From positions 112,351 to 176,350 of the forward strand of contig CAVXMT010000006.1 of the NCBI GenBank assembly GCA_963763105.1: a stretch of 64,000 nt of DNA, read 5' to 3'. Position 1 is the first letter of the stretch. Every line of letters starts with the position of its first letter. Shown piece by piece: positions 1 to 64,000 of this stretch. Both the position numbers and the translations under genes were made by a program. The notes beneath the pieces were generated by a model. The model was not told the origin of the DNA. It did no database searches and was given only the letters and a program-made list of their open reading frames with translations. The DNA is from an uncultured Candidatus Altimarinota bacterium (GTDB lineage Bacteria; Patescibacteriota; Gracilibacteria; BD1-5; UBA2023).

Positions 1-575
1 AGATGAAGCTCTGATATTATCTTCTGTGGAAGAAGAGATTCTTCAAAGAATATAATATCCTCTTCAAATCCTCCAACCTTCACCACATCAGATTTTCGAA
101 AAAATCGTGCTGACTCTATACGTGTCCCGACATAAAATGATCGCTCAAAATCACGAATCCTTACAAATAAGCCCTTCCCTACTGATCGTTCTGGAATTGT
201 CACTCAGCCAAGATCAGGATGAGATCCGAGGTGATCTATGCATTCTTCGAGAACCTGGGGACTGAGTATCATATCACTATCAATGAAGCAGAGATACTCC
301 CCTTTTGACTGTGATATTCCATAGTTTTTCTGCGTTGTCCTCTCGGATCACTTCTGAAAAAATGTATCTGTATATTGAATACCAATATCCCGCGTAGTAT
401 CCGTCGAAAAATTATCGACAATAATAATCTCAAAATCAGAAAAACTCTGATTCTGAAGGGAAATCAGGCACGATTCTAAGGTTTTAGCACTATTCTTTGT
501 CGGAATAATAATTGAGATTTTTGGATTATCTTTATTCATGGATTCAAAGTTCAGAGAGTATTTTCTCAAGTTCAT
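1..575 (-). CDS. Family 2 glycosyltransferase, 3' end runs off the window start. The start is more likely ATG at 538, which overlaps the upstream gene's TAA.
   Basis: N-terminus KISIIIPTKNSAKTLESCL..IIIVDNFSTD is a GT2 signature. The frame stays open through TGA at 348-350 (and a further in-frame TGA) down to nt 1 (..CFIDSDM..). Confidence 0.8.
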
Positions 576-1659
576 CAGTTTTTGTATCCCAATTCCCCAG
601 TCTTTTTACATATTCGAGACTTTGTATACTGAGCTTCTCATAGAAATCAGTATCACGAATAACTTCAGCAAGCTTCATTCCCATGCTCTGATAATCACCA
701 TCAGGAATGAGAAATCCATTCACTCAAGGATGAATACTGTCACGAAGCCCAGGAACATCATATCCAATCGCTGAAATTCCATAAGCATTCGCCTCGAGGA
801 TGACCAGTCAGAAGCCTTCTTTTTTTGATGGCACAAGTAATATCTTGTGAGGTGTAATAAAATCCTGCATTTTTTCATTATCGATATATCCAGAAAAAAA
901 TACACGATCCTCAAGATGAAGTTCTTGTATAATGAGTTTGAGTGTATGAAAATATCCTAGATCTTGATATGTGCCTGCAATATTCAGAATATATTCTGAG
1001 AAGTGAGAATCAGAATGAAAAAATACACTAAATGCTCGAATAGCATCTTCTACTCGCTTCACTGGCATAATTCTTCCTAAGAAAAGAATTTTCTTTTCCT
1101 TTTGAGTAAAATCAACATTTTGAATAGGCATTCGATCGCATACATTCTCTATTACCGAAATATCATTTCTACTAAATCAGAAATCATTTACGAGTTCATC
1201 TCGAGTAGAATTTGAGACTGTAATCGTAGTATATGATCGATATTGGCGAATCATAGAATGATATAATTTCTTTGCAAATTTTCCTATATATCAGTACTTC
1301 TGAAATTCATCATCACCAATATGGTGAATAAGAAAAAGTATTGGAATTTTTTTCTCATAGAGTGGAGAAAGAAGAGGCCAACCACCCGCCTCATCAATAA
1401 TAATATCAATATGATTTTGTTTCTTCCATTTTCTATACCATATCCACCCAAAAAGCCACGCTGTATGCATATGAAACTTCCTGATGATATGAATCCCATC
1501 AATGACTGATTCTCTCTCTGCACCAGGAAATGTACTCGCAAACCATATAACCGTATGTCCACGAGCAATGAGTCGTTTCGCATAATTATAGATTACAGTT
1601 TCTGCTCATCATTTTGATGGATGAGTGATGTCTTTCCATGTAAGAAAGAGGATATTCAT
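532..1659 (-). CDS. GT4/GT1-family glycosyltransferase
   Basis: N-terminus MNILFLTWKDITHPSKGGAE, where GG is encoded by TGA TGA. C-terminal EGFGLVILEANAYG motif. Stop is TAA. Confidence 0.85.
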
Positions 1660-1663
1660 ATGA

Positions 1664-2596
1664 TTAGTTCACTTTATTTCTAATAATATAGAGTGGTCGT
1701 CCGATGACTTCTTCATGAATATTTGCAATATAGAGCGCTATAAATCCAAGAGCCATAAGTGTGATCCCCATAATCCACGTATTCAGAATTATGATAAGAA
1801 CAATATTACTAAAAGCATACATCTGTGTCACGAGCTTATCGAAGACGACAAAAACTGCGAGAAGTGAAGTAAAAATAGTGACGAAGAATCCAAGATAACC
1901 GACAACCTTAAGTGGGAAAAATGAGAAAGAAGTAAGACTATGAAGTGCAAGTCGAAAAAGCATAGGATATACATAGGTTGCCTTTCCATATTCACGAGGA
2001 TTAGCATCGAAGATGAGAGGTATCCGAGAAAATCCGAGCCAATCGATCAATCCACGATAAATACGGTTTTTTTCAGAAAATCGGAGATAAGCATCGACGA
2101 CCTTTCTGTCGAGAAGACGATAATCAGTCGCTCCTGGTTCAAGCTTGAATTCTGAGATACGATTAAAAAGAGTATAAAAACATTTCGAGGAGAGTTTCTT
2201 GATCCAATTGGCATCATGAATTCCTGGTCGAATATTGTAGACGATCTCATATCAGGCCTCCCATTTTTCTATAAATTCTGGAATATGCTCGACTGGATGT
2301 TGGCGATCAGCATCCAGTGTAATAACCGCATCTCCAATAGAATTCTCGAGTCATGCAGTGATCGCGAGTTCTTTCCCAAAGTTTCGAGAGAGATCGATTC
2401 ACTTCACCCGAGAGTCCTTTCGAGAAAGCTCCACTATCTTTTCCCAGCTTCGGTCTTGGCTCCCATCATTCACAAAAATAATCTCAAAAATATATAAGTT
2501 CGATATTTTTTCAAGAACTTTCGAGAGCTCATCATAGAGAATCGGAATATTATCCTGCTCACGATATACTGGGATCACGAATGAGAGAGTTTTCAT
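1664..2596 (-). CDS. GT2 polyprenol-phosphate glycosyltransferase (DPM1/ArnC/GtrB-like) with C-terminal transmembrane helices
   Basis: FVIPVYREQDNI.., ..ITLDADRQHPVEHIPEFIEKWEAGYEIVY.., and two C-terminal TM helices. Three ORF fragments join in one frame through TGA. Confidence 0.85.
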
Positions 2597-2719
2597 GAAG
2601 AGAGATTAAAATGTGAGGTGTAAGAGATTTTTTTCTTTTCATTGTATAGGAACAATGAGAAAAGAAAAATAGAAAAGGAATATGAGAATCATAGGAATAC
2701 TTGTATCAATATGAATATT

Positions 2720-3346
2720 TCAGAAATAGCGTTGAAATGTCACAAGTGCAAGAGAAGGAATAAAGATATATATTCCATTCTTGAGATACCATAGAAATAT
2801 TTTCTGTATTTCAGAAAGATAGAGTTCCCATTCTGGTGGTGAATATCTCAGCCATTGATTTCTCTTCATTATACTCTGTATTCGAGGAGCAACCATATCA
2901 GATATACATCCAAACATGAGCCCATAAAAAACATACTGGGAAAATATACCCGCCATATTTCCTTCCTCGATAAGGAAAGCTATAGGAATAGCAGAAAGAA
3001 ACATAAAAACAATGAGGAAAAAAATGCGGATATTAAGAAGTGAGAATACTGATGTAATTCAAAGAATCAGAAGAAATACGATAGGAAAATCTATATGAAG
3101 ATATCAAATTAGGAAAAATGAAAACCAGACAAGAAGAAATCCCTGAAAAAGAGATGGATATGATGTTTTTTCTTCTTTCGGACTTAGAGCTATGTGTCTA
3201 TAGGCAGCAAAATAAATCGGAAGAAAAAGAGCAAGTACCATCGAAAAAAAGAGATCACTTCTTCCTATACCAAGAAAAAAAATATTTGTACTATCAAAAA
3301 AAATAAAGAGGATACCCGTAATGAAAAGAATAAGAAATGGTCGCAT
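2720..3346 (-). CDS. Hypothetical polytopic membrane protein
   Basis: Two ORF-track pieces share a frame and are joined by TGA codons at 3104-3106 and about 3059-3061. Hydrophobic throughout. I recognise no family. Confidence 0.5.
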
Positions 3347-3867: not shown

Positions 3868-3869
3868 AT

Positions 3870-4418
3870 TTATATTAATTCTTCGAGTCGAAGAAATTGC
3901 GGAGTGAGGTAGTATACGAGTGAAGCTGATCATTCTTTGACATCCTTCCATTCAAGAGTGTCAGGAAGAGACAGGACAGCAACCGATCATTTTTTCATTG
4001 ATGGAACTCCATCTCATGAGAGATATTTTGCAAAGTTTGTCAGATCATCATTGTGTCAGACGATCATAAGAATCGTCACATCTTTTTTGAGGCTCTTTAT
4101 GAGATTCAAGTGGATCAGATCAGAATCTCTCTTGGAGGCTGATCAGCCATTGTAGAGATTGCCGACATATTCTATTTTGAGATGCGAGAATTGTTCTATG
4201 AGTCGCTCTGCAGTTTGTTTTGTGCGCGTTGCTGGACTCGCGATGATCTTGTCTGGCTTCACTCCTATGAGTCTGAGATACCTCGCGACAAACTTCAGTG
4301 AACTCTCTCCTCTCTCTGAGAGTGGACGATCGAAATCCATACCAGAAAATTCTGAGAGTTCGAGTGCTTTCGCGTGTCGGACAAGAATGATCTGTTTTTT
4401 CTTCGTATTATGAAACAT
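3870..4418 (-). CDS. sixA: SixA-type histidine phosphatase
   Basis: ILVRHAKA..DFDRPLSERG...ILMIVGHNDDL, where the G of VGHN is TGA. The ORF-track start at 4505 is TTG, so I prefer the ATG at 4418. Confidence 0.7.
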
Positions 4419-4530
4419 AAGCGTATTATACACAAAAATACCCCCATACAAGTGGGAGTATTTCTTTCGAGTTGCTTTTTCTTTCTTATGGTTCCGAATT
4501 ATCAATTACTCATTTTCAATTCTCTATTAT

Positions 4531-5442
4531 TTACGAGTCTTTCATGCTTTCTACTCCACTCACGATTTCAGAGACTTCTTTTGTGATCGCTGCTTGTCGG
4601 GTTTTATTGTAGATGAGTGTCAATCATGTTGCCTTTTTGTCGGCACTATCTTTTGCATTCTTCATTGCGACCATACGAGCAGCATGTTCTGATGCTTTTG
4701 CTTCGAGAAGCGTCTCATGGACGATACCATCGAGGATGAGAGGAATAGTCATGGTGACGATTGTCTCTGCATCTGGCTCGATCGTATAGCTTCCCTCATA
4801 TGACTCTGCTTCGTATTTCTTCCCGACGACTTTCTCGAGAAAAGAAAAAATATCTTCTCTCTTGATAGGAAAAAGAGGCTTTATGACAGGAAGTTGGGTG
4901 ATCGCTGAGACATAATGATTGTAGACAATTGATACTTTCGAATATTTTCCAGAATCCCAGAGATTGATAATAGCTCGTACCATGCGACGAGAATCAGCTG
5001 CAGTGAGAGGATCTTTTATCTCATCTGAGAAATCAATACTCAGATTCTGTCCAGTACGAAGAATGAAATCACGAGCTCTTTTTCCTATAGTGATATAGTC
5101 ATATTCTCTTGTAAATGGTTTATCCAAGTCATCTCGAATATACTCAGTAGTTTTCTTGAAAATATTTGTATTATATCCTCCACAGAGTCACTTCTGGGAA
5201 GCGATAATCACGATAAGCTCACGCGTCGCCTCTGGGGCTCGAGAAAAATTCCCAAGTACCTCATCACTCTTTGCGACTTTCCCAAGAATAGAAAGAACAG
5301 CAAGAGCAAAAGGTCGAAATCCAACAACACTTTCTTGAGCTTTTTTCATCTTCACTGTCGAAATAAGCTCCATAGCTTTTGTGATTTTTCCAGTGTTTTT
5401 TACGGATTTAATTCGAGATTTGATTTCTTTACCTGATGCCAT
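4531..5442 (-). CDS. atpG: F-type ATPase gamma subunit
   Basis: N-terminus MASGKEIKSRIKSVKNTGKITKAME. C-terminus LTLIYNKTRQAAITKEVSEIVSG. Fragments joined through TGA. Confidence 0.9.
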
Positions 5443-5469
5443 AAGGATAATTTATAGTTTATAATTTTC

Positions 5470-6993
5470 TTATTTTTTCTCTTCAAAGAGTCGTGAGAAA
5501 TTCTCAAGGAATTCAGAAAGGAGTTTCTTTGTCTCATCAGAAAAATCTTTTGTCTCACGAATACTTGTAAGAATCTTTTCTTCCCGATCAAGAGCAAGAA
5601 GAAGATCATGTTCAAAATTACGGACATACTTCACATCAATCTTATCGAGATATCCTGCAGATCATGCAAAGATAATAGCCACTTGTTTTTCGAATGGAAT
5701 CGGTGAATAAATATCTTGCTTGAGAAGTTCGATCATACGCTTTCCTCGCTCAAGTTGTTTCTTGGTATCGGCATCAAGATCTGAAGCGAATTGAGAGAAG
5801 GCTTCAAGTTCACGATATTGTGCAAGAGTAAGTTTCAGAGTTCCTGCATTTTTCTTCATGGCTTTTGTCTGGGCAGATCCACCGACACGAGAGACAGAAA
5901 GTCCTATATTGATTGCTGGCTTGACTCAAGAATTGAAGAGTCCAGATTCGAGGAATATTTGACCATCAGTAATCGATATTACATTTGTCGGAATATATGC
6001 CGATACATCACCACCCTGAGTTTCGATAATTGGTAGTGCCGTCATAGATCCACCTCCGAGTTCATCATTTAGCTTTGCTGCACGCTCGAGAAGACGAGAG
6101 TGAAGATAGAATACATCTCCAGGATATGCCTCACGACCTGGTGGACGACGAAGGAGAAGTGACATTTCACGATAGGCATTTGCATGCTTGGTAAGATCAT
6201 CATAGATGATAAGTACATGCTGTCATTTGAACATGAAATATTCTCCCATAGTTGCTCCTGAATATGGTGCGAGCCACTGCATCGCAGCAGGTGATGAGGC
6301 TCCGGCAGAGACGATGATTGTGTATTCGAGAGCTCCTGCTTTTTTGAGTTCTTCAGCAATTGTGACGACTTTTGAATCCTTTTGTCCGATAGCAACATAG
6401 ATACACTTTACACCATTTCATTTTTGATTGAGGATTGTATCGATTGCAATTTGTGTTTTTCCTGTCTGACGATCTCCGATGATCAACTCACGCTGACCAC
6501 GACCGATTGGCACAAGTGCATCGATTGCTTTGATACCTGTAGCCAGAGGTTCATGAACTGATTTACGACTCATGACACCGGTAGCGACACGCTCAGCTGG
6601 ACAGTATTCGTTTGCCTTAATCTCTCAGAGTCCATCTATAGGATTTCCAAGTGGATCGACGACACGTCCAAGAAGTGCTTCTCAGACTGGAATTTCGAGA
6701 ATTTTTCCTGTCGCTTTTGCGATCATACCTTCACAGACTGTAGAAAATCATGAAAGTATAACGATACCGACATAGTGTTCTTCAAGATTCATGGCAACTC
6801 CCTTAGCTCAGCTATCAAATTCGACAACTTCATTGTAGGCGATATTTCCAAGTCAGATAACTTTGGCGATACCATCACCAAGATAGACGACTTTTCCAGC
6901 ATTGACACGATCTGGAGAGAGATCGACAGAATCAATTTGTTGTTCGAGTTCTTTTATGAGGCCCTGAGCGAGTTCTATGGCGGATTGAGACAT
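5470..6993 (-). CDS. atpA: F-type ATPase alpha subunit
   Basis: GDRQTGKT Walker [24 protein letters not shown], and [19 protein letters not shown] with G encoded by TGA. Length is 508 codons including the stop (507 aa). Confidence 0.95.
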
Positions 6994-9312: not shown

Positions 9313-10245
9313 ATGATTTCTACTATCATAATTTTATCTCCCCTTATGCCCTACCCTACCCTTGATCAAATAGTCCTTGATACTCTTCATCTCTATCAGA
9401 CAAAAAGAGATCTTCCAAAAATTGATTTTTCACTATTCCAAACACCTCTCGTTGTTGGTAGTGGAAATGGCTACTATACTGGGCGTATACTCTTTCGAAA
9501 CAGTCCTGCTTATTTTGCGTCTGAAGCAGAAGTCGAAAAAAAGCTCGAAAATATTCCCTCTATCACTAATGTCGTCGTCGTATCAGCGAGTGGAGAAAAA
9601 CATGCCCCAATTATTCTCAATATAGCCAAAAAATATAAGAAAAATACTTTCCTTATCTCATCAAGCGAGAAAAGTCTTGGAAGAGAAATTGCTGATAGGA
9701 GTATCATTATGCCAAAAATTCGAGAACCTTACACATTCAATACCTCCACTTATTTTGGTTATCTCTATTCTGAAGATACATCTCTAGATCTCAGGAAGCT
9801 CGAAGAATTTCTTTGTTGAGATTTCAAAAAAATCCTCGAAAATATATCTTTTCGAGAGTATAAAAGCTTTTTTATTGTACTTCCAGATGCATTTGTTCTT
9901 CTGAGAGAAATGATCGAAGTGAAATTCATAGAATTATTCGGGCGGAAAATTGCCCGAGATATATTCACCTATGAGCAAATGAAACACGCTACAACTGTCA
10001 TACAAGATGAATGAGAACTTTTCCTTTGTTTCTGAAATACAAGCGAGATAAAATATGGGAATAACCAGGTAAATCTTCCGATATTCCATGAATCAAGCTA
10101 TGCTGCAATGATGCTTATATCATACTATCTCGTCGGAAAAATACAGTCATCTCTTCCATCATATTTCATGAATTCTATCGAAGACTACTGTATTCGAGCA
10201 AAGCTTCAAAGTGGGTTTAATATTTCTCCTTGGGTTGAAGTATAA
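9313..10245 (+). CDS. Hypothetical protein with a possible SIS-like (sugar isomerase fold) segment
   Basis: The frame is open from 9313 through three TGAs to TAA at 10243. VVVSASGEKHAPIILNIAKKY resembles an SIS loop. This assignment is weak. Confidence 0.5.
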
Positions 10246-10778: not shown

Positions 10779-11129
10779 TTATTTTTTTGACTGGATAAGT
10801 CAAACAATCATACGAGAGATTTCATTTATCTCAGAAATCAAGGACTCGTACTCCAGAAGAGAAATAAAATGGAGACGATATGAAAGCTCTATCTGTGTCT
10901 CAATTTCTGCACAAGATCCACGCGCAATATAGAGAAAATGAATCTGATCTTTCAAAGTTTGTCGTGTATTTCATTCTGCAATATTACTCGCTATAGATAT
11001 TGATGATCTTTTAATTTGATCGACCAATCCATACATTTCTATTTTTGGAAATTTCATACATATACCGTAGATACTCTCTACAAGATGCATTGATTTTTGC
11101 CAAACCTTTAAGTCCTTAAAAGTATTCAT
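10779..11129 (-). CDS. Four-helix-bundle protein (23S rRNA intervening-sequence protein family)
   Basis: MNTFKDLKVWQKSMHLVESIY..FPKIEMYGLVDQIKRSSISIASNIAEG (the final G is TGA) is the family signature. Confidence 0.8.
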
Positions 11130-11848: not shown

Positions 11849-12973
11849 ATGCGTTTTCGTATTGACACCGATATCTTCCGCAAAGCCATAGATGTAGCCA
11901 GTCATGCGACTGGAACGAACAATCTCACTCCCATTCTTGAGAATATTCTTATCGATGCAGGATACAAGAGACTTGTCCTCACGGGCAATAATCTCGAAAT
12001 GGCGATCGAATATATCGTCGAGGAGAAGGTCGATGTCGAAGTCGAAGGTCGTTTTACGATTTCTTCGAAATTCCTCACGGCATATATCGCTCTTGTGCAA
12101 GACAAAGAGGTCACAGTCGAGCTCGAAAAATGAGGAAGTCTCAGATTCACAACAGCTTCAAGTAATACAAAATTCAAAGGTGCAAGTGCAGATAAATTTC
12201 CTATCATACCAAATCTTGTCGCCAATACTCCCCTTCGAATAGAATCAAAAGATCTTAAAATTGCTATAGAAAAAACCCTCTTTTCAACTGCAGATGGTGC
12301 GATTCGCCCAGTACTTGCAGGAATATTTCTCCATGCAAATAAGGAAAAACTCATTTTTGCCTCGACTGATAGCTTCCGACTCTCAGAATTTATCGTGAAG
12401 ACGAATTCTCCTGAAAGCTATACTCCTGTAATAATTCCAAAAAAAACTGCTGCAGAACTCGCTCGTATCGTCAATGATGAAAATGAAAAAATGCCAATAG
12501 AGCTCTATTTTCATGAAAATCAGTTGCTCGCAACTCGTGGTAATATACGTCTTTCTTCAAGACTCCTTTCAGGAAAATTTCCTGAATATGATGGATTTTT
12601 CCCAAAAGAATTCATGACAAAAACGACAGTACTTCAGAGTGATCTTGTGACAAGTCTACGTCAAGCAAATCTCGTCGCCCGAGAAAACAACTACAATACT
12701 CGCATCAGATCTAAGCATGAGTGAGTGGTCGAAATCTCTACAGGAGATACGGAGGTCTGAGCATCAAGTATATCTATATCATGATCTGTGGAATGACAGG
12801 AAGATATCGTCGGAGTGAATGCTCAATATGTTCTCGAAGCACTCTCTGTAATACGGGAAGATTATGTCAGTTTTGAATACAAGTCAGCACTCTCGCCAAT
12901 CATTATCAAGTGAGTTCCTGGAGAAGATGGGAAGTATAGTTATCGTCACCTTATCATGCCACTCAAGATTTAG
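11849..12973 (+). CDS. dnaN: DNA polymerase III beta sliding clamp
   Basis: 374 aa with a three-domain clamp pattern (..LENILIDAGYKRLVLTGNNLEMAI.., ..STDSFRLSE.., ..YRHLIMPLKI end). Stop is TAG. Confidence 0.9.
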
Positions 12974-12976
12974 TCT

Positions 12977-13996
12977 ATGATCAATCAGCTTAATACTCTC
13001 GAATCTCGCGCTCTTGCGACACTTCCGACAATAGAAAGTGAAGAAGCACTCATTCTCTACAAAAACACACTTCTCTGAAAAACTGGGGAGCTCACAATGA
13101 TACTCAAATGACTCAAAGATCTCTCTCCGGAGGATCGTACGACTGTAGGAAAGCGAGCAAATGAACTCCGTGATACTCTCACGGAAGCCGTAGAAAATCA
13201 AAAGAAAATCATCGAGCAAAATACTATTCGTGAAAAACTCGGAAGTGAATGGGAAGATACGACAATACCTTTTGAGAGAAAAAAATGATCACTTCATCCG
13301 ATCACTCTTGTACGACAAGATGTCGAAGATACTTTTCGTCGTATGGGATTCGATATATACGAATCCATGGAAGTCACGACAGAATATCTCAATTTTGATA
13401 CCGTAAATGTCCCAAAAACACATCCAGCTCGAGATATGCAAGATACGTTCTGGCTCGAATGAACTGGGAATGTTCTCGCGACTCAGACTTCTTGTATGCA
13501 GAACCTCATCATGCGAAACAATACACCTCCGATTCGTGCGATCATTCCTGGACGTGTATTTCGAAATGAGGATGTCGATGCGACGCACGACAATACATTC
13601 TATCAAGTCGAGGGAATCGTTGTCGATAAGGGAATCGGTATGTGACATCTCAAATTCACTATCACGACCATGCTTTCAGATATTTTTGGAAAAGAAGTAA
13701 AAATCCGTATGCGTCCAGGCTACTTCCCTTTTGTCGAGCCAGGCGTCGAGATCGACTTCTCTTGTCCATTCTGTGATGGAGTCGGATGCAAGATATGCAA
13801 ATGATCTGGCTGGATAGAATTCATGGGAGCAGGACTTATTCATCCAAATGTACTTCGTGAAGGATGACTTGATCCTGAAGTCTATACAGGCTTTGCATTC
13901 TGATTTGGACTCAATCGTCTTGTGATGATAAAATATGGAATTCCTGATCTCCGCTATTTCATGAATCCTGATGTGAGATTTCTAAAACAGTTTTAG
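12977..13996 (+). CDS. pheS: Phenylalanine-tRNA ligase alpha subunit
   Basis: [37 protein letters not shown] and FAFGFGLNRL. I translated the whole gene line by line. About nine TGAs read as Gly. Confidence 0.95.
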
Positions 13997-16572: not shown

Positions 16573-16704
16573 ATTCAGAGACAGATCCTCACTTTTTCGA
16601 TGTATTTCTCGGAGAAATCGAAAAAAGAAAGCCTAGTAAGAAATATGGATGTCTACTCCTTCAAGATCTGTAAGAGTATCGATAAGGAGTGTATAGTAAG
16701 TATT

Positions 16705-16926
16705 TCAATTCTTATGCACAGTACTGAGATGCTCCTTGAGAAGATGATTTTCTTGTATGATAATCTTTTCTATAGATGAATCTCTAAGTACATCATAGAG
16801 AGCATCGAAGTTCCTTCCAAAGATATTGGCATCAAGATGAAGTGAAGAGATAATCCCATCATAGAAAGTCTCGAGTGAAATAATATCTTTCCCTGAAAGT
16901 GTAAGTGAATTCATAGAATACATCAT
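16705..16926 (-). CDS. Barstar-family ribonuclease inhibitor (about 73 aa, start uncertain)
   Basis: LSGKDIISLETFYDGIISSLHLDANIFGRNFDALYDVL parallels barstar [37 protein letters not shown]. Confidence 0.65.
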   Translation of the reverse strand: MMYSMNSLTLSGKDIISLETFYDGIISSLHLDANIFGRNFDALYDVLRDSSIEKIIIQENHLLKEHLSTVHKN

Positions 16927-18460: not shown

Positions 18461-19051
18461 CTACCCCCTCCCCTTAAATGCTGATAGGAGCGTAATCTCA
18501 TCAGCATATTCGATACTTCCTGCATGAGGAAGTCATTTTGAGAGACGAGAGATTTTTACACTTCTTGGCATATGCTCGATCGCATAGAGCGCTGTCGCTT
18601 CTCATTCGATATTTGGATTGGTCGCAAGGATAATTTCTGCGATCTCTCTATCTTCTCCGACTCGAGTGAAGAGGCTCTTGTAGTTCAGCTTATCTGGCAT
18701 CACTCCTGCTATTGGTGATATAGATCCTCAGAGGACATGATAGCGGCCATGATAGACTCATGTTCTCTCTATTGAGACCATATCGAGATAATCTTCGACG
18801 ATACAGAGAACTGTCTGATCACGCTTGGTATCATTGCATATTTTGCAACGGGGAGATATGACATCCGTCATTCCATGACACACCTCACATTCCATAAGAG
18901 AATCATGAAGTGAATCAAGAATCTTCGCGAAATTCTTCACATACGCACGATTCGATTTGAAGAGAAAAAAAGCAAGCTTCGCTGCTGTCTTCTCTCCAAT
19001 TCATGGCAAAAAATGTATCATATCTATGAGTCGCTTGAGCGTTTCTGGCAT
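18461..19051 (-). CDS. recR: Recombination protein RecR
   Basis: LIDMIHFLPGIGEKTAAKLAFFL helix-hairpin-helix (G is TGA), a C4 zinc finger CEVCHG..CKIC, and a Toprim segment. Confidence 0.9.
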
Positions 19052-20445: not shown

Positions 20446-20677
20446 AAATATATATAAAAACAAGAAATATCGCGAATAGAAGATAGTCTCTTTTCTATTT
20501 TTGTCAAAACAAAATTCCCTTCTTTTCGTAGCGTTTTTTTTCGAATTTTATCTTGAAGAAATAATTATTTTAATTATTAATATAAAGTATTTTAGATATT
20601 TTATACAAGTTTTTTACAAAATTTGTATAATTTTTGATGAGATTCTCACAAAAAATGTGTAAAAACTGGTTTTTCGT

Positions 20678-25300: not shown

Positions 25301-25544
25301 TAATCTCTATAGTGGCGATAATTTCAATCTCCGTTTTAGTGTCAATATTTCAACTTCAGCGCGAGAGATCGCAATCTTTATAGATGATAAAGTAGTTCAT
25401 AATGCTTCTGCGTGAGATCTTTTTATGATTCCAATTACTTCATCTTGACTCTCAGTATGATCTCATGTCCTTCGTATACAAGTGCTCGATGGAAATATGA
25501 ATAAGGCAGAAAAAAATATTCAGTTCACTATCCTTCCCAGGTAA
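22353..25544 (+). CDS. Class A penicillin-binding protein (glycosyltransferase plus transpeptidase) with a C-terminal extension of about 220 aa
   Basis: GT51 motifs STEDKTFFENPGVD and GTSTLSQQL. Transpeptidase motifs GSSFKP (G is TGA), SRN and KTGTS. All 1063 codons were checked for TAA/TAG. Confidence 0.9.
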
Positions 25545-45967: not shown

Positions 45968-46214
45968 GAGAGCAAAGCTTAGTTTTTAAAATAAATTTTT
46001 TTGTCAAAAATATGTGAAGATTGTATCCAAAAGAAAGATCTTTTCAACTTCATTACTCCATCATGATACCAGTTTTCTTATGAATAATCGAATATTTTCT
46101 CTTGCGAAATGAGAGCTTTCATGACTGCTCTATCCTTGCTTTCTTTTTGGAATAGCTACAATGTACTTAACTTCGCTCTATTATGAGTTTTTTATTCCTA
46201 ACCTTTCATCAATT

Positions 46215-46933: not shown

Positions 46934-48190
46934 ATGCTAAAAATTATCTGACCTCAATCTCTTTCTGGAAAAGTAAAGATATCTGGATCCAAGAATGCAG
47001 CTCTTCCACTTATTGCGGCTTGTCTTTTTCATGAGACTTCTCGACTTGAGAATGTTCCCCGTATAGGTGATATACTCACTTTTATAGAAATAATTAAATC
47101 GCTTGGCGGCAAGGTAAACTTTGAGGGAAATACTCTCGAAATGGATACAAAAAATCTCACAAAAGATACACTTGATACTGACCTTGTACGAAAAATTCGT
47201 GCAAGTATTCTTCTCTTCCCAGCACTTCTTGCTCGATTCTGATCACTTGAAATTCCTCATCCAGGATGATGTGTGATCGGAAAACGTCCTGTATGAGATC
47301 ATGTACGAGGACTTGAAGCTATCTGATATTCTTATGAAGGAACCGAGGAAGGGATGCGATTCTCTGGAGTAGCTCGAAGCGGGAAGGTAATTTTTTCTGC
47401 AGGATTCGCTGTGACTGCAACTGAAAGTCTTCTCATTGCAAACGCATGGCGTGATGGAATTACAACAATCACTATGGCTGCGATCGAGCCACATGTAGTC
47501 AATCTTATTGATTTTTTGCGAGAAGCATGAGTAAAAATTGATCTCTCATATGATCATGTGATCACAATTCATGGAGAAACACTTATTCCAAAACACGTCA
47601 AAGGAAAAGTAGTTGCTGATTATATCGAAAGTGGAACATTTGTCGTACTTGCAGCCCTCACCGCTGAGCCATCAATCGTAATAGAAAATGCTCGAATTTC
47701 CGACCTTTCTGCATTTCTCGAGAAGTGTCGTGAAGCTGGAGTGCGATTTGATCTGAAAAGCGAAAAAGATGAAATCATCGTATACAATTCTCGTACCAGT
47801 CTTCGTGCAATCACACTTCAGACGAATATTTTTCCCGGATTCCCGACAGATCTCCAATCCCCATTTGCTCTCCTCCTCTCTCAATGAGAAGGAATATCCC
47901 GCATCCACGAGGTTCTTTTCGAAGGAAGGCTCAATTGGCTCGTCGAGATCGAGAAAATGAAATGACATATTGCTATCATGAATCCTCATGAAGCGCTCAT
48001 ATTTGGGAAGACTCACCTCAGAGGAACGACTGTATCGAGCTGGGATCTGCGCGCCTGAGTGACAATGATCATTGCTGGAATGATCGCACGAGGTGAGACG
48101 CTCATCACGAATGTAGAATATATAGAACGTGGATATGAGAATATTGTAGGGAAAATCCAGAAGCTTTGAGGTATAATCGAGCAAATATAG
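46934..48190 (+). CDS. murA: UDP-N-acetylglucosamine 1-carboxyvinyltransferase
   Basis: ISGSKNAALPL, the active-site segment HPGGCVIGKRPV, and ..FPTDLQSPF.. 418 aa. Confidence 0.93.
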
Positions 48191-48210
48191 TTCTATAACT
48201 GTACGTTTCT

Positions 48211-48402
48211 ATGGGATATTGAGATTTTGCTCCACCGAGCGGACATCATTCAAAAAAACCTCTCACAAGAAGTCAGATAAAAAAACTCCAACAAGCGTAT
48301 GCAAATGCTGGGGCTATCACTGAGGAAGTAAAATCACTTGAGAAAGAGGAACAAATGAAGACTAAGAATGAAATCGAAAATGACTTACAATTGCTATTTT
48401 AG
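48211..48402 (+). CDS. Small hypothetical protein (63 aa)
   Basis: ATG-to-TAG ORF with one TGA. Charged and helical. Uncertain. Confidence 0.3.
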
Positions 48403-48421
48403 CCAAAGAGATCATTTATCT

Positions 48422-49525
48422 TTATTTTTTCCACCTCCAACTCTCGATGTATTTCATACTAAGTCGAGCAACTATAAGTGATACAATAACTACAGTCATA
48501 CTGAATAAACTCCACTCAAGAAATGAAGTCGAAATATGGTGAAATAAAAATGTAATAAGAATACTAATGATAAGCCCATGCCAGAGATAGAGGCTATATG
48601 ATATTGCTGCAAGATAAAGGAAAAATCGATTATCTATGAGAACTCAAATGTATCGAGAATAGATAAGTGAGAATATTGCAAGTGCCCAGAGTCATGGAAC
48701 AAGAGGAAATCTGTATGGACTCATCGGGTATGAATATGCAAGATCTGGAGCTCACCGAATGATCCAGAGATAACTAAATATTGAAATTGTCGAAAGACAA
48801 AAGATAAAATCCCAGATACAATTTTTTTCCATATTTCGATACCAAGTGACTATTCCTCCGATACATATCCCGAGAATCGAATAGAGTGCAAAGATGAATG
48901 GACTATAATGAGGAAACCACACAGAAACTATTCCTGAACCAGGAGACCACGGAAGTGAGACAAAGAGTGAATGAAGAGCAAGAAAGAGAAAAATATAGAA
49001 AAAAACCACTGGAATGATATATTTTCGACTCACACGAGTGAGTCCGAGCATCATGACAATAGCGAAGAGATATCCCATCATATCATATCCGATGAACCAA
49101 AGTGGCCCATTCACAGCACTCGGAAAAAATGTCATTGGAGATATCCAGTTCAGGAAAGTAAGTCAGGAAAATAGCGATATAAGACTATCTACGTTGTATC
49201 ATGAGAGATAGATACTCCAGAGAAATGAAACAATAAGTGCGATATAATACACGGGGGCAATACGCCGCCATCGGTCAACGATGACTTTACGAGTATTTGG
49301 AATCTGAGCATCATGAAATATGGATTCCCAATATCCGAGTGAGCGCAGAAGTCCTGTGAGAATAAAAAAAACTGCCACCACTACTGGAAACATATTGAAA
49401 TACATATAGAAATCCCAATTCCACTGTGAGAGTTCTTGTATAGGACGAAGTTGCTGAAGATGATAGAGGACAATCATGAGTGCGACGAGGCCGCGAAGTC
49501 ATGATATTCAATCAAGTTTTTTCAT
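48422..49525 (-). CDS. Acyltransferase family 3 membrane protein (OatA/O-acyltransferase-like)
   Basis: MKKLDGISGLRGLVALMIVLYH family-3 N-terminal motif. Multiple TM helices. Fragments share one frame through TGA. Confidence 0.8.
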
Positions 49526-49622
49526 AGAAAAGATACTAATAAGAAATCAAGTTTCTGCAAATCGAGCTCGACTTATTTATTTTTTTTCATAGAATCCATC
49601 CGTTATTTTTTCTTATTTTTCT

Positions 49623-50558
49623 ATGTCTTTTCTTATTTCTGGTTCTGTAGCATTTGATATCATCATTCAGACTGTCTGAAGTTTTCGTGCCCAAGATAAT
49701 ACAACCAATACTGACCTTCATCTTTCACTTTTTTCTCCACATATCCGAAGAGAATACGGTGGGACTGCTGCGAATATCGCCTATTCCCTCGCGCTTCTAG
49801 GTAAGTCATCACATATCATTGCAGCTATCGGTGAAGATGGTCAGGATTCACTCACACGATTGAATGAAATAGGGATCAATACAGAATTCGTAAACATTGT
49901 TCCATGAAGTTATTGTCCACAAGCCTATATCCTCCGAGATGAATGAAATGGTCAGATCAATACATTCCATGCTGGGGCTATGAGTACATCAGGTGAACTG
50001 AGTCATGGCAATGTACATTTTGATTATGCTATCGTTGCTCCAGATTCGAGAGATGGAATTTTGAGAAGAGTGGCAGAGTGTACATCTGCTGGAATATTTA
50101 CTATTTTTGATCCAGGACAAGCAATGGGACTTTTCTCGAGCGAAGAGCTCAGAACTATGAGTATACAAGCGAATATAACCATTATGAATGAGCCTGAGCA
50201 AAAACAGTTTACAGAAATAGTAGGAGAGGATTTTGTCGATATTTGTCGTGCTCATGGCAATACTGCGATTGTAACTCTCGCAGAGAAGTGATCGTGCATC
50301 TACCAATGAGAAGAGAGAATCTCGATATCTGGAATATATACAGCGAATATTGTGGATGCTACAGGCTGTGGTGATTCCTATAGATCAGGACTTCTCTACT
50401 GACTCTCTGAATGATGGAATATAGAGAAATCATGTCAGCTAGGAAGTATTATCGGTGGTATAAAAATACAATCCGTCTGACCACAAAATCATACTATTGA
50501 TAGAAATATTGTAAACGCAATAGGAGAAAAGGAATTTGGAGTAAAATTCTTTGATTAA
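49623..50558 (+). CDS. PfkB-family carbohydrate/nucleoside kinase (probably adenosine kinase)
   Basis: ..REYGGTAANIAYSLALLG.. and ..DATGCGDSYRSGLLYG.. are PfkB signatures. Adjacent to ahcY. Confidence 0.8.
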
Positions 50559-50609
50559 AATCCATTCTTTCATACAATTCGCCCGTTCTATTTTTTCAAA
50601 ATTTCACAC

Positions 50610-51998
<1,389 letters not shown>

Positions 51999-52010
51999 AA
52001 GTAAATAAAA

Positions 52011-52045
52011 AAATCCCGCACCTTGGTAAAGGTTGTGGGATTTTT
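52011..52045 (+). terminator. Probable terminator after ahcY
   Basis: Imperfect GC-containing hairpin aaatcccgcacc...ggttgtgggattt followed by a T-run. Confidence 0.5.
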
Positions 52046-52058
52046 CATTCAGAATATA

Positions 52059-52364
52059 TTATTTGCCCAATTCGACAGGGATATTTTCGGCAATATTCTT
52101 CATTCATGGAATCTTCTGAGCTTGATTGCGAATTGTCTCCGGCCTACAGTCAATAATAGGTCATTTCCATTTATCATCACTATCAGCTAATTCTAATATA
52201 TTATTAGCACATTTTGCCGCAAGAAATCCAGATAGGGATTTCGTTTGAAATGATTTCGGATTATCTAGTGGTCATTCTATTTCTGTATTCATTGAAGATC
52301 TTCAGCATCCACTCAATGCGCCAATCATAGCAACTGCTGATCCCACTTTCTGAAAAGAATTCAT
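52059..52364 (-). CDS. Small putative lipoprotein (101 aa)
   Basis: The signal peptide ends in the lipobox-like ALSGC. Four TGAs. Stop is TAA. Confidence 0.45.
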
Positions 52365-52374
52365 AAATATATAA

Positions 52375-53127
52375 GGGTCTAAACCAGTTACGGGTTAAAT
52401 TTTCTGAGTAATTTTAAGATTTCTTTATAGATATCTTTTCATTGTATACGACAATTATATCGAAATTCAGATTCTTTCAAGAAGTAATAAAAGTAAGCTT
52501 TCTTGATTCAATTGAATTGAGAGAGTCTTCTTTTTGTGAAGCTCCAAAATGACTCAATTCAGTTAATATGCTGGTTTCATCTCGCAAACTCATTGGCTCC
52601 ATGATGTACTCTGTAGTGTTTCTCATATCCAATATCTACCAATCCATCATATGCAGGCCAACCATCACTATTGATCTCAGTATCTTCAATCTTTACTTTT
52701 CATCTGATAATTGGAACCAAAGTTTTAGCTTTCACATCAGGAACTATCTCAGTATAGACTTTTCCATTTCTTTTGAGGAGTCCAAATACTATTGTCTTCA
52801 TTCCAGCTCATCTTCATCTCTTTCATCTCACTCTAGTGGGTCAGAAATAACTTTCATCTACCTCAATAGAACCTGTCCATATTTCTGCTTTTTCTGCTTC
52901 ACAGAGAGCTGAGATAGCTTTTCTGATATATCTATACCAATCTTGAGTAGTTTTAGGATTAAGTCATGTTAGATTCGCTGTAATATCTGAGGTAAAATCC
53001 AGAGAAAAATAGCGAACTATTTCTCTTATTTTTGCATCTCAAATTCGTGATTTTTTTCGATAGAGAGTTTTTCTGATCATAGAGCCAGTATATGGGGTAA
53101 AGAATTACCGTCAACTGGTTTAGACCC
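52375..53127 (-). mobile_element. IS1595-family insertion sequence (small, IS1016-like size) with terminal inverted repeats
   Basis: Inverted repeats GGGTCTAAACCAGTTACGG and CCGTCAACTGGTTTAGACCC (one mismatch). Flanked by direct TATATAA at 52368-52374 and 53128-53134. Confidence 0.85.
52388..53080 (-). CDS. IS1595-family DDE transposase
   Basis: ..IEVDESYFGPTRVRGKRGRGAGMKTIVFGLLKRNGKVY.., ..INSDGWPAYDG.. and ..HINGIESFWSFTKRRL... Several Gly residues are encoded by TGA. Confidence 0.85.
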
Positions 53128-53256
53128 TATATAATTAGGAAACTAAAATATAACTGCATAATACTCTCTCTCTCTGTATTGTCAAATATATTTTTTATAT
53201 TATTATATTTTTTTCTTTCAGCTCGACTTTGTTCTCGATTTTTATATGATACATAT

Positions 53257-56200
53257 ATGAAAGATATTCAAGATATTCTCGCATCACTCAATCCTCGCCA
53301 ACGCGAAGCTGTAGAGACAATCTATGGCCCAGTACTCGTGATTGCCTGACCTGGAAGTGGTAAAACACAGATTCTCTGAGCAAGAATAGCCAATATTCTT
53401 CATGAGACAGACTATTTGCCGTCGAATATTCTCTGCCTTACCTTTACAGACAACGCTGCTCGCAATATGCGAGACCGTCTTGCCCAAATGATTGGGCATG
53501 ATGCCTATCGAGTCGCGATCCACACATTCCACAGCTTTGGAAATGAGATACTTGCTCGTTATCGGTATCTCTTTCGAGAATATACTGACTCTGGAACTAT
53601 CGATATGGTCACGGCTTCCAAGATTCTCGATGAGATTCTCACTCCGCTCCCATGGAATGATCCATACAAGCCAGGAATGCGTGCTGGAGAGACAATTCAA
53701 GAAATTCTCGGGCGTATTTCTGATCTCAAGAAATGAGGTATTACGCCAACTCTTTTTCGTATGATTCTTGAGATAAATAAGAGAACTATCGATATGCTCG
53801 CTTCCATTCTCAAAACACACTTTGAGAGAATCGATGCTCTCGGTCAGAAGAAAGAAGAAAAACTTCAAAAAATCGAAATATTCAAAGAAATGACAAATTC
53901 GGTTCAACATTTGTCCGAATATGAGAAAATATGAGGATATGATAGTCTTCTCAGAACAATCCAACTCGAACTCGATACTGCCTGGGAAGAATACGATGGA
54001 GAATCAAGTACAAAATTCCTCACAGCATGGAAAGAATCATGGACAGCAAAAGATTATAATGGCAATCGAGTTTGGAAAGAGTCAGAAAAACTCAAAAAAC
54101 AATTCTCTCTTGTGAATATCTATGAGGCATATCAGTCTCGACTGGAAGAGGAATGACTTGTAGATTTCTCGGATATGATCCTCAGAGCGATCGAGCTCGT
54201 CGAGCGTGATCCAACTGTACAAGCCAATCTCGCAGAACAATACCAATTTATTCTTATCGATGAATTCCAAGATACCAATGAGGCTCAGATGCGACTCGTG
54301 AATGCTATCCTCTCTGTCGATAGCAACAATCCCAATATATTCGCTGTCGGAGATGATGATCAGTCTATCTATAAGTTCCAATGAGCAAATATCAAGAATA
54401 TTCGCGACTTTCATGAACGATATGAAGATACTAAGCTTATCATTCTTGATACGAATTATCGATCGACATCTTCCATTATTGAGTCTTCTCGGGCAATTAT
54501 AGAATCAGAATCGTCCGAAATATCAAATATATTCCCATGAGCCACCAAAGAATTCAAGTCAAATTCTGGAGAATGAGGTGCTGTTGCACAATATTCTTTT
54601 GATACAGAGCTCCATGAGATAAGTTTTATCATCAGAGACATTGAGCAAAAAATACAATCTTGAATCCATCCAGAAGATATCGCTGTCATCGTAAAGAAAA
54701 ATAGATCCCTCGAAACCATCGCAAAGTGACTCATTTCCCTCGGAATGCCTGTCAGTATGAGTAAATCAGAATCTATTTGGGAAGATGAGATTATTATTCT
54801 TATACGAAATATCTTCAAATATCTTGCATCACTGAATACTCATCAAGAGCAGAAAGAAGTTCTCATCGATATCATCTCGCATCCATGCTGGAATATACCT
54901 AGACTCACTCTCTGGCAGATCTCTCGTGACATCTATCATGCACGCCGTGAAGATAGGAAGAGCTGGATCGAACAACTCTCAGGTCATGAAATTCCTGAAA
55001 TTCGTGATTTTGGATGTTTTCTGAAAGAGCTCTCAAATATGAGTGAATATACTCGTCTCGAAGACCTCACTGATGCTATCACTGGAGCATCTTCACTCGT
55101 ACTTCCAGATGAATATGATGAAGATGCTCGAGCAAATCCTTTCCAAATATCTCTCCTCTCGGGAGAGAAGAAATCCTATATCTCTCCTCTCTATACTTAC
55201 TTTTTCGGACAATTATGAAATCATAATGGATTAAATAATGAACAATATCAGAAAAAGGCTCGCTCTCTCGCGAATATCAAAAAACTCACTGATGAGATCA
55301 GAAACTATAAGAAACAAAAACCATATCTCATGCTTGAGGATGCCATAGAGCTCATTTCTATGATCGAGAAATATGAGATCCGCATAGAAACTTCTCACCT
55401 CATCGGAAATGAGAAAAATGCTGTGAATCTTATTACTACCCACAAAGCAAAATGATTGGAATGGGATCATGTCTATGTGCCATTTTTGACAAAGAGGGAA
55501 TACAAGCTCTGAAAAATATCAGGATCAACTCTCCCGAAGAATCTTCCTCTCGAAGCCGACAAAGATGACGATGCGGACATAGGACGACTCGTCTATACTG
55601 GATATACCCGAGCACGATCATCACTCACCGTGAGTTATTCGAGTCAGAGCATGGATGAGAGAGTAAATGAATCACTTTCTTGTATCGGATCTGAGAATCC
55701 AGAATGGAAACAAAGAGAAGATATTACTCCTTTCACACTTTCTGAAACACTTGAAGATGCAAGTCATTCCCTCTGGAGTCTTCCTTATGAGGACAGCGAA
55801 GAAGACTTTCTCAGAGATCGTATCGAAAAGCAATTTATTATGAGTGCGACAGCGCTTCAGAATTTTCTCGATATCACCAGTGGCTGACCGACTCATTTTA
55901 TCGCAAATAATATCCTCAGATTTCCATGAGCCAAGAATATTGCAGGCTCATATGGATCTGCGATGCATGCCGCTCTCGAGAATTTCTTCACAGACTACAA
56001 AAATAATAATTCCTACAAGAAAGAAATTCTCTTTACTTCATTCGAAAAAAGCCTCAAAGACGAGGGATTCGAGAAATCTATCGAAAATACCTGGCTCGAA
56101 AAATGAAGAGAAAATCTTGAGGCACTCTATACTGAGCTTGTCGGAAAATCCTATGGAGAACTCTCCCTTGAGAAAGACTTCAGGACAGAATGAGGTGGAG

Positions 56201-56643
56201 TCTGGCTCTGAGATATTCAACTCACTGGTAAAATAGATCGTATCGAACGACTTGCCGATGATACTCTCATAATCACCGACTACAAAACAGGTGGTGGATT
56301 CGATAGCTTTGATGGGAAATGAGCCGAGTATGCAAAACTCAAACAGTGGAAATATCGACTCCAACTTGCTTTTTATGCAATACTCTTCGAACTCTCACCC
56401 CGCTATCGTATGTTCCCGAAAAAACAATTCGAACTCTTTTTCATAGAGAAGAATCATGATGAAAATAGGTTCCATCGAGTGACAGAGTACATTCATGAAG
56501 GGGAAATCGAACGAACAAAATCTCTTATCAGAGCAGCTACTGACTGTATACGTACTCTCAAGTTCCCAGATATGAGACAATATCCTCAGACGGTAGAGGG
56601 GATACGGATGTTCGAGGAAGACTTATTAAATTGACTTGTATAA
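53257..56643 (+). CDS. UvrD/PcrA-type superfamily 1 helicase fused to a C-terminal RecB-family PD-(D/E)xK nuclease
   Basis: AGPGSGKTQ, LIDEFQDTN, YKFQGA, TTHKAKGLEWDHVYVP, then GKIDRIE..LIITDYKTG..LQLAFY. 1128 aa. The frame was checked line by line. Confidence 0.85.
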
Positions 56644-59837: not shown

Positions 59838-59840
59838 CTA

Positions 59841-60543: not shown

Positions 60544-60555
60544 ATTCGAATATTT

Positions 60556-60993: not shown

Positions 60994-61020
60994 GGATAAA
61001 TAATGGTTAATTGATAATTG

Positions 61021-61374
61021 TTAATTTTTTGATTTGGAAGTCTTTAAAATAACACAGAGTAATTTTATAACTTCTAGAATATCACTCTCAAGAGACTGAT
61101 ATTCCGCTTCTGATATATAATCAGTATCTTTTAATAGCTCAAGCCAATATAATGTTTCATCAGCTTCTTTTTGTGATATACTAAGTTTATGGATAAAATC
61201 AGCATTGCTCTGAGCATTTTGTGCTTCTCGAATATTTGCTCAAATAGAGGTACCACTTCGGATAATTTGTTTTGAAAGAATATATTCTTTCTTATTTTCC
61301 ATAAGAGAGTTTCCAAGACGAACGCTCCGAATGGCAAATGCATAACTTTTTTCTTTAACTGGATTTGGTTTCAT
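61021..61374 (-). CDS. Four-helix-bundle protein (23S rRNA intervening-sequence protein family), second copy
   Basis: ..SYAFAIRSVRLGNSL..ILSKQIIRSGTSIGANIREAQNAQSNADFIHKLSISQKEADETLYWLELL... Confidence 0.8.
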
Positions 61375-61397
61375 AATTTACAATTTGCCATTAACAA

Positions 61398-62276: not shown

Positions 62277-62340
62277 AGAATTGATTTGATAAAAAAATAA
62301 AAACACTATAATCGTATGAATTTCTGACCAAAAAGCAAGC

Positions 62341-63339
62341 ATGCCTACAAATATAGTCGCTATCGGTGGAGGAGCTGGAACATTCAATGTTCTCTATGGG
62401 ATAAAACGGAATCTCGACTACAATATTTCTGCTATTATTTCTGTGGCAGATAATGGTGGTACGACTGGTGCCATCCGTGATAAATATGGAATTCTCCCTC
62501 CTGGAGATATGCGCCGCGCAATCGCTGCTCTCGCAAAAAATACTGATATGGTACGAAAGATGTTCGAATATAGCTTCAAGGATGAGGAATGAGTCATCGG
62601 AAGCAATAAAATCGGAAATATTCTTCTTACAGCTCTCGTCGATATTACTGGAAGCTTCGAAAAATCAGTCGATACACTCTCAGAAATGTTCGATGTACGA
62701 GGTCGTGTCATTCCTGTCACACTTGAAGATGTCCATCTTGCTGTCCGATTCGAAGATGGAACTGAAGTCATCGGTGAGAAAAATATCGATATATCTGATA
62801 AAAATCCTGGGGAACGTACACACAATATCGATCAAGATATCACTGATGCCTGGCTGGTATGAAATAGTGGGAACCTCAATCCCAGGGCTCGTGAGGCAAT
62901 ACTCTCAGCTGACTACATCGTCATTGGTCCTGGAGATCTCTATACAAGTATCGTTCCAAATCTCCTCTCCAAGGGCATGCGTGAAGCTCTGCATGCAAGT
63001 AGTGCAAAGATAATCTATGTCTGCAATGCTATGACGAAACGTGGTGAGACGACAAATATGGAAGTGATTGATTTTATCGATACAATCGAGCGCTACATCG
63101 ATCCTGGAAAGCTCGATTTTGTAATCGTAAATAATGGTATAATCTCAGATGAAGTCGTGACAAAATATAAAGCAGAGGAAAATAAAAAACCACTCAAAAT
63201 CAAAGATATTTCCCTATTTCTGGATAAATCCTACAAAGTCATCGAACGCGATATAGTCAATGATGAAGACTATGTGAGACATCACCCATTCAAGCTTGCA
63301 CAGATACTTGAGGATATTGTAAACGGATGGATAAAATAA
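62341..63339 (+). CDS. YvcK/CofD-family (UPF0052, gluconeogenesis factor-like) protein
   Basis: IVAIGGGAGTFNVLYGIK, ..SVADNGGTTG..PPGDMR.. and ..IGPGDLYTSIVPNLL... Confidence 0.85.
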
Positions 63340-63583
63340 TATTGACTTATACTAAATATACATTATTATGATTATATATAAATGAATATCTACGATATTT
63401 CCATTAGCCTACGATATTCTTGTTAAGTCTCTTCGAGTTAAAAACAACGAAGACTTATGTCGATTAGATATTAATCCAAGTGTATTTGGGAAAATTAAAA
63501 CAGTAAACCCTGACGGTCTTGCAGGATACTTTTGAACAAAGAGGACTTGAATATGTCCAACTGGTCTGTGTATGTAAGGCTAT

Positions 63584-63910
63584 ATGAATAATTACTGGAG
63601 AGGATCCTATATTGAAGATGTCATACTTTATGAATGATCTCATGTTTGGAGTAGATGCATGGTTTACTATATGAGGTCGTCGGATTGCGTGGATGTAACA
63701 TGAATAGGTTCCATGGCAGGGAAATCAATCCAGCATGATAGCTATGTAGCCCAAGAAAACTATGTATCTACTACTTATTGAAGATGAAGAAGTTGATATA
63801 TGAGCGATAGAATATGACGAATTATCATTGCGATGCCTCCAAAGATTACAGATTTGCTCAAGGAATATCATCTGACAAGACTGAATCAGTTAGACAATCA
63901 TACCACATCT
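63584..63910 (+). CDS. Low-confidence ORF (108 aa with TGA as Gly) in an otherwise stop-rich terminal region
   Basis: The only frame open for more than 100 codons here. It is preceded in the same frame by a 69-aa ORF (63368-63577, one TAA apart) and overlapped by ORF 63814-63999. Confidence 0.2.
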
Positions 63911-64000
63911 TAGAAAATCATGACAGAGTCTTGTATTACGTGAGTTTTAAAGAAGCTGAATCAACTCCTGTAAATCAAACTAATCCCTCACCACAATAGA

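Follow-up and report, generated by a model that had tools for sequence, protein, structure and literature searches.

It has been known since 2013 that UGA encodes glycine in Gracilibacteria and SR1, and this reassignment has been confirmed by proteomics. In published work, UGA is translated as glycine in Gracilibacteria and Absconditabacteria, in which the tRNA-UCA carries the glycine identity elements G1:C72, C2:G71, G3:C70, and U73 (PMC8629427), and an additional tRNA-Gly(UCA) has been described in SR1 (PMC3812714). The gene prfB was undetected in any BD1-5 genome (PMC6851277), an article which also states that the glycine reading of UGA in Gracilibacteria was validated by proteomics by Hanke et al. 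In Absconditabacteria, CGA and CGG are reportedly translated as tryptophan as well, and some Gracilibacteria may read CGG in this way (Shulgina and Eddy 2021, PMC8629427). The stretch of DNA analyzed here, referred to as the window, comprises 64,000 nucleotides of contig CAVXMT010000006.1 (GenBank assembly GCA_963763105.1, positions 112,351 to 176,350). The window is almost certainly Gracilibacteria DNA (BD1-5, candidate phyla radiation [CPR]/Patescibacteria) that uses NCBI code 25, with UGA as an ordinary glycine codon, UGG still as tryptophan, and only UAA and UAG as terminators; the phenomenon is already known, in this lineage too, and the window exemplifies genetic code 25 in textbook form. 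Following the published work on the lineage, UGA in this organism would be decoded by a dedicated tRNA-Gly with the anticodon UCA, and release factor 2 would have been lost, such that nothing would terminate at UGA.

The G+C content of the window was 37.6%. With TAA, TAG, and TGA all treated as stops, the window contained 1 stop-to-stop open reading frame (ORF) of at least 300 amino acids, compared to 54 with TAA and TAG only. Freeing TAA instead of TGA yielded 2 ORFs of this length, and freeing TAG instead yielded 1. Only the release of TGA lengthened the ORFs, and TAA and TAG therefore remain stops. Under table 11, just 12 ORFs of at least 170 amino acids were present in the 64 kb, several of which were spurious antisense ORFs. 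Treating TGA as a sense codon also opened very long antisense shadow ORFs, up to 808 amino acids opposite clpC (examples are at 43556-45982 and 4198-5457 on the forward strand and 12656-13843 on the reverse strand). Greedy gene choice by length alone was rejected, since it picked approximately 12 of the antisense shadow ORFs; longest-ORF picking thus fails when TGA is sense, and scoring by codon usage is needed. A gene set of 58 genes with TAA or TAG stops was chosen by a codon-usage log-odds score of the ORFs and covered 86% of the window. RNase H, FtsE, and a 299-amino-acid ORF at 9349-10245 were added by hand beside this set.

Searches of the window products against Pfam and the PDB revealed an ordinary bacterial gene set. 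ATP synthase genes were found for the a, c, b, alpha, and gamma subunits, and a small ORF occupied the delta position. Other products identified included GroES, GroEL, ClpC, SecDF, DnaN, PheS, RplA, RpsO, HrcA, RsmH, RecR, MurA, MurD, MurI, AhcY, a UvrD-like helicase, a class A penicillin-binding protein (PBP), an LCP protein, FtsE, and glycosyltransferases. An Rfam scan of the window matched no RNA family.

The 58 genes contained 18,277 codons, including 366 TGA (2.0%), 169 TGG (0.92%), and 983 GGN (5.4%) codons. TGA occurred in frame in 56 of the 58 genes and accounted for 27% of the glycine codons. Complete genes were terminated by TAA (34 genes) or TAG (23 genes) and never by TGA, as an earlier interpretation of the window by eye and ORF list (the sequence-only reading) had stated for the genes that it rebuilt. 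TGA codons were uniformly distributed along the genes (29 to 43 per gene-length decile), and the number of genes with TGA inside the last three codons was close to that expected by chance (4 observed versus approximately 3.4 expected); with no 3' excess of TGA, there was no hint of residual use as a terminator. Glycine content was 5.4% from GGN codons alone and 7.4%, an ordinary value, when TGA was included. Tryptophan content was 0.9% from TGG, which is also ordinary, and would rise to 2.9% with TGA read as tryptophan.

Distant homologues pointed to glycine as the amino acid at TGA. Eight window proteins were each aligned to the best natural solved-structure (PDB) homologue, and the aligned columns were pooled; the homologues were all from standard-code organisms, and the comparison is therefore not circular. 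TGA was aligned with glycine in 38 of 76 columns (50%) and with tryptophan in none, and the nonglycine partners were scattered (aspartate in 6 columns, alanine in 6, serine in 5, arginine in 3, and others). GGN codons faced glycine in 164 of 224 columns (73%), and TGG codons faced tryptophan in 4 of 17. When candidate amino acids for TGA were scored with substitution frequencies from those same alignments, the log-likelihood was -175.8 for glycine, compared to -226.6 for serine (the runner-up), -207.9 for a random column, and -269.2 for tryptophan, so that glycine led by 50.8, 32, and 93 nats, respectively. A leave-one-codon-out test over all codons also returned glycine for TGA, with a margin of 50.8 nats. 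The sequence-only reading had claimed that the window follows table 25 and had named checks that included a comparison of ORF lengths with and without TGA as a stop, which came out in favor of TGA as a sense codon, and the alignment of TGA sites to homologue columns, which came out in favor of glycine.

TGA was located at conserved glycine motifs in many individual genes, and a codon-by-codon check placed it at all of the sites that the sequence-only reading had quoted for AtpA, RecR, FtsE, MurI, the PBP, AhcY, the helicase, and the glycosyltransferase. The atpA gene (5470-6993, reverse strand) contained nine TGA codons, six of which faced glycine in the Bacillus PS3 alpha subunit, and its motif FNS-TGA-VKPAIN had TGA at 5926-5928. 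In murI (34178-34861, reverse strand), 6 of 11 TGA codons faced glycine in Aquifex MurI, and the motif FDS-TGA-LGG had TGA at 34835-34837. The class A PBP gene (22353-25544, forward strand) contained 28 TGA codons, of which 6 of the 14 that were aligned faced glycine, with the motif RQP-TGA-SSFKP at 23817-23819 (position of the TGA). The UvrD/PcrA-like helicase gene (53257-56643, forward strand) contained 20 TGA codons, with 5 of 9 aligned codons facing glycine and the TGA of the motif A-TGA-PGSGKT at 53347-53349. TGA was also found in the signature LSG-TGA-E (25972-25974) of the ftsE-like ABC ATPase gene (25555-26232, forward strand), in LP-TGA-IG (19001-19003) of recR (18461-19051, reverse strand), after GYGDVGK (51384-51386) in ahcY (50610-51998, forward strand), and twice in succession in PSK-TGA-TGA-AE (1606-1611) of a GT4 glycosyltransferase gene (532-1716, reverse strand). 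Six of the 10 TGA codons of murA (46934-48190, forward strand) faced glycine in Haemophilus influenzae MurA, as did 3 of the 8 in pheS (12977-13996, forward strand) in Pseudomonas aeruginosa PheS. The clpC-like AAA+ chaperone gene (43454-45967, reverse strand) contained 14 TGA codons, and 3 of the 9 that were aligned faced glycine (HTIIxAGxAEG and GYEExG).

The six TGA codons of groEL (38963-40603, forward strand) are at 38984, 39215, 39725, 39764, 40340, and 40568, and all six had been claimed to fall on conserved glycines. This was correct for residues 85, 255, and 268, which face invariant glycines, and incorrect for the other three, which are at variable positions. Likewise, the motif NDAA-TGA-DGT does have TGA (39215), but the glycine of PGFGD, which had been cited as a second example, is written GGC.

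Related genomes were used to follow individual codons. One genome per GTDB species was scanned with the YvcK-like protein of the window (62341-63339), which yielded 37 loci, 36 of which were at 73 to 98% protein identity and nearly all titled Candidatus Gracilibacteria. Eight further loci came from a search of proteins with MurD and from look-ups of the matches, and the MurD homologues were named Candidatus Gracilibacteria by NCBI. Among the Gracilibacteria loci from the genome scan, every one that reached 8 kb showed a jump in ORF length once TGA was freed, and no such jump occurred in a Saccharibacteria control locus (L037). In a codon-level orthologue alignment of the window with approximately 44 related loci, 224 window TGA positions were covered, of which 163 were majority TGA or GGN and 133 had GGN in one relative or more, whereas TGG was seen in no relative at any of them; this conservation as TGA or GGN held in relatives down to approximately 60% identity. 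In the reverse direction, TGA was present in some relative at 214 of 586 window GGN positions. At window TGG positions (n = 103), 89 stayed mostly TGG and 1 showed TGA, with changes leading to phenylalanine and tyrosine codons. As judged from these alignments, TGA is synonymous with the other glycine codons among the relatives, and TGG acts as a tryptophan codon.

The nearest genomes were therefore Candidatus Gracilibacteria metagenome-assembled genomes (MAGs) that share the recoding, in agreement with the earlier placement of the DNA in Gracilibacteria or Absconditabacteria. The species is probably absent from the GTDB representatives, because the nearest of these matched at only 89% nucleotide identity over 2.1 kb. 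Metagenome scans with the rebuilt MurD and with an exact 30-nucleotide pattern taken from the right end of the window had no match, nor did exact look-ups of RpsO and of two MurD fragments. Six contigs from five isolates were titled "uncultured Candidatus Peribacteria" (L003, L005, L010, L028, L036, and L038); these are third-party-annotated MAGs with 74 to 87% identity to the YvcK-like protein of the window. In the four of these contigs that were at least 8 kb in length, long-ORF content rose when TGA was freed, by a large amount in L005, L010, and L028 and approximately 2-fold in L036. The "Peribacteria" label of the six contigs is probably wrong or from a different scheme.

Several results weigh against UGA being a fully ordinary glycine codon in the window or concern its decoding apparatus. 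TGA faced glycine in distant homologues at 50%, significantly less often than the 73% for GGN-encoded glycine (Fisher's exact test, P = 3.5e-4) and below every individual GGN codon (67 to 80%). By this comparison, TGA lies preferentially at less conserved positions. Some TGA codons also faced conserved residues other than glycine, such as glutamate in ClpC (YRGEFE-x-RLK) and aspartate in MurA (RPV-x-DH). ARAGORN predicted no tRNA gene in the window or in 45 related, largely syntenic loci (L002-L046, approximately 630 kb), and neither the window nor the loci (634 kb) contained a match to a regular expression for the release factor GGQ motif, a result that bears on release factors 1 and 2 neither way.

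The lower frequency of glycine opposite TGA could indicate that UGA is mainly glycine but imperfectly decoded (slowly, ambiguously, with misreading, or with drop-off), a second-class codon that is kept from critical sites. In line with this, TGA represented 16% of the glycine codons in 14 core genes versus 31% elsewhere (P = 1e-8), and published work notes that U34 wobble could be ambiguous as to UGA and UGG (PMC8629427). The TGA share of glycine codons was 0 in atpE and rpsO and 7 to 12% in groEL, groES, rplA, secDF, and ahcY, and it was highest in an insertion sequence (IS) transposase gene (58%) and a hypothetical gene at 32513-34186 (69%). However, the TGA share dropped significantly as gene G+C content rose (Spearman rho = -0.38, P = 0.006), CGA behaves likewise among the arginine codons, and much of the pattern could stem from AT mutation pressure or from the ordinary association of preferred codons with conservation and expression. 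Imperfect decoding is judged very unlikely as a replacement for code 25 with UGA as an ordinary glycine codon. As an account of the TGA usage pattern itself, AT pressure with ordinary codon bias is at least as likely as imperfect decoding, since the TGA share tracks G+C content and CGA is alike. That UGA is a second-class glycine codon, avoided in core genes and at invariant glycines and dominant in mobile or fast-evolving genes, is a possibility that we regard as doubtful; if it were true, decoding by tRNA-Gly(UCA) would be slower or less accurate than that of GGN codons, and the reassignment, although complete as to meaning, would not be so as to fitness.

Translation of UGA as tryptophan (code 4, Mycoplasma type) would leave the ORF structure unchanged from that under code 25, and an automatic gene caller did choose code 4 for sequences from this lineage. 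In a collection of 5.8 billion proteins, the MurD fragment of the source contig (P0023), recorded on a contig of 271,435 bp, carries tryptophan at every TGA, as do MurD relatives from Logan/ENA (P0001 and P0002), whereas NCBI Gracilibacteria entries have glycine. This code was nevertheless rejected as highly improbable for the window, because tryptophan was never aligned with TGA in the PDB homologues and scored far below glycine, because no relative had TGG at any covered TGA position and TGG is not replaced by TGA (apart from the 1 noted above), and because the tryptophan content would become implausible. The retention of TGG for tryptophan, on which the sequence-only reading had rejected a Mycoplasma-type code, is thus borne out.

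The finding of code 25 in the window has practical value for annotation and is not conceptually new. Table 11 shreds the genes of the window. Window positions 47018-52402 (5.4 kb) are matched at 100% identity by a Logan contig (L001, run ERR12037365), in which table-11 annotation divided AhcY among three genes (183, 60, and 169 amino acids). Table 4, the usual automatic fallback, yields ORFs that look fine but turns 366 glycines in 64 kb (27% of all glycines) into tryptophan, including those at P-loop, GroEL, and Mur-ligase motif positions. Errors of these kinds are carried over into family alignments, predicted structures, and functional calls. The split AhcY and the MurD with tryptophan indicate that both kinds of annotation error exist in public data; the warning in the sequence-only reading that standard-code annotation of the contig would be badly wrong was justified.

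The reading of UGA as a stop codon, with the interruptions attributed to pseudogenes, sequencing errors, or read-through including selenocysteine, finds some backing in the single-base frameshifts that do exist in two window genes but is so improbable that it can be set aside, because every one of the 366 in-frame interruptions is TGA, never TAA or TAG, 56 of the 58 genes are affected (groEL, atpA, pheS, and dnaN among them), frames are preserved across the TGA codons and their positions are kept as TGA or GGN in the relatives, no gene requires a TGA terminator or shows 3' enrichment of TGA, and the Rfam scan of the window, having returned no match of any kind, returned no SECIS element. Pseudogenization and selenocysteine were rejected on the basis of frame conservation and of the synonymous exchange between TGA and GGN.

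The sequence-only reading had also held that the breaks in conserved genes are always TGA. This applies to the in-frame TGA codons and does not extend to two frameshifted genes. The murD gene (31178-32468, reverse strand) lies in two frames, with one extra C right after ATG TGA (at approximately 31645; ATG TGA C|CTT CCG CAT), followed by a TAG. The shift precedes the conserved motif G-LPHR, the glycine of which is itself encoded by TGA. The extra C is missing in L039 (SRR25490534), a relative with 92% nucleotide identity that has an intact MurD of 429 amino acids reading T-G(TGA)-LPHRLE. The frameshift in the window reflects either a mistake in the assembly or recent pseudogenization, and the public MurD product of the source contig (31620-32468) is a truncated piece of 282 amino acids. 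The second gene, which is hypothetical and rich in TGA, spans 63507-63913 on the forward strand in two frames (63507-63698 and 63578-63913). It is a single ORF in a relative (L002), from which the window differs by a one-base deletion near 63690. The last 660 bases of the window, which had looked noncoding, contain this gene, the second frameshifted gene in the 64 kb.

Within murD, a perfect 7-nucleotide tandem repeat (CATTGTC, 3.7 copies) was observed at 31496-31521 and encodes MDNGQWTM. Three copies (21 nucleotides) keep the frame and add approximately 7 residues relative to Escherichia coli MurD, and a change of one copy would shift the frame. The repeat is also present, slightly diverged, in L039.

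Two hypothetical genes with no Pfam match keep their position beside murD in the relatives. One (32513-34186, forward strand) encodes 557 amino acids with 22 TGA codons, and an orthologue of it has a weak RelA_SpoT (PF04607) match on record. The other (27805-31146, forward strand) encodes 1113 amino acids with 37 TGA codons, and its product is apparently a membrane protein, as judged by its hydrophobic sequence. In rsmH (19519-20463, reverse strand), no ATG precedes the conserved N-terminal half, and translation probably begins at a GTG (20445) or a TTG (20463); under ATG-only start rules, the gene shrinks to the C-terminal 177 amino acids. In its S-adenosylmethionine-binding motif GLG-G-H, the second glycine is encoded by TGA. 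Two paralogous genes for 23S rRNA-intervening-sequence proteins (PF05635) were found on the reverse strand at 10779-11129 (E = 4e-38) and 61021-61374 (E = 7e-29), and an orphan barstar-like gene, with no adjoining barnase, was present at 16633-16926.

An IS1595-family insertion sequence of 755 bp was identified at 52374-53128 (reverse strand), with perfect 16-nucleotide terminal inverted repeats and TATATA flanking both ends. Its transposase gene (52388-53080; PF12762, E = 2.9e-25) contains 11 TGA and 8 GGN codons, so that 11 of its 19 glycines are encoded by TGA, consistent with the earlier remark that even this transposase uses TGA; with 11 TGA codons, the transposase is makeable only in a code-25 host. 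The element was not present at the syntenic loci of the relatives. The Logan contig that is identical to the window stops 29 nucleotides inside the element, which suggests that several copies exist in the genome. A related IS1595 transposase gene adjoins groEL in one relative (L040).

The arginine codons CGA and CGG distinguish among the known codes in which UGA is glycine. Both were common in the gene set (231 CGA codons, or 126 per 10,000, and 40 CGG codons, or 22 per 10,000). In alignments to the PDB homologues, CGA faced arginine in 20 and lysine in 13 of 53 columns, CGG faced arginine in 5 of 11 columns, and neither faced tryptophan; in the relatives, both codons exchange with CGN and AGR codons. 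The leave-one-codon-out test flagged CGA as lysine-like, a reassignment that was rejected because arginine was the commonest partner and because of the CGN/AGR exchange in relatives. A variant in which CGA and CGG encode tryptophan was rejected because both codons are common and never face tryptophan. On this evidence from alignments, CGA and CGG are ordinary arginine codons, which fits Gracilibacteria and not the Absconditabacteria variant.

Compared to the known systems, the window thus has UGA as glycine in common with the Absconditabacteria (SR1) variant, but the CGA/CGG-to-tryptophan change of that variant is not in the window. With table 4, used in Mycoplasma/Spiroplasma and some endosymbionts, the window shares UGA as a sense codon and the ORF map, but UGA is tryptophan there and glycine here; according to published work, the decoder for code 25 is an extra tRNA-Gly(UCA) and not a tRNA-Trp that also reads UGA. 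In codon meanings and lineage, no difference was found from NCBI table 25 (Candidate Division SR1 and Gracilibacteria), with which the window shares UGA as glycine, UGG as tryptophan, UAA and UAG as stops, a low G+C content, and relatives among Gracilibacteria MAGs with the same recoding.

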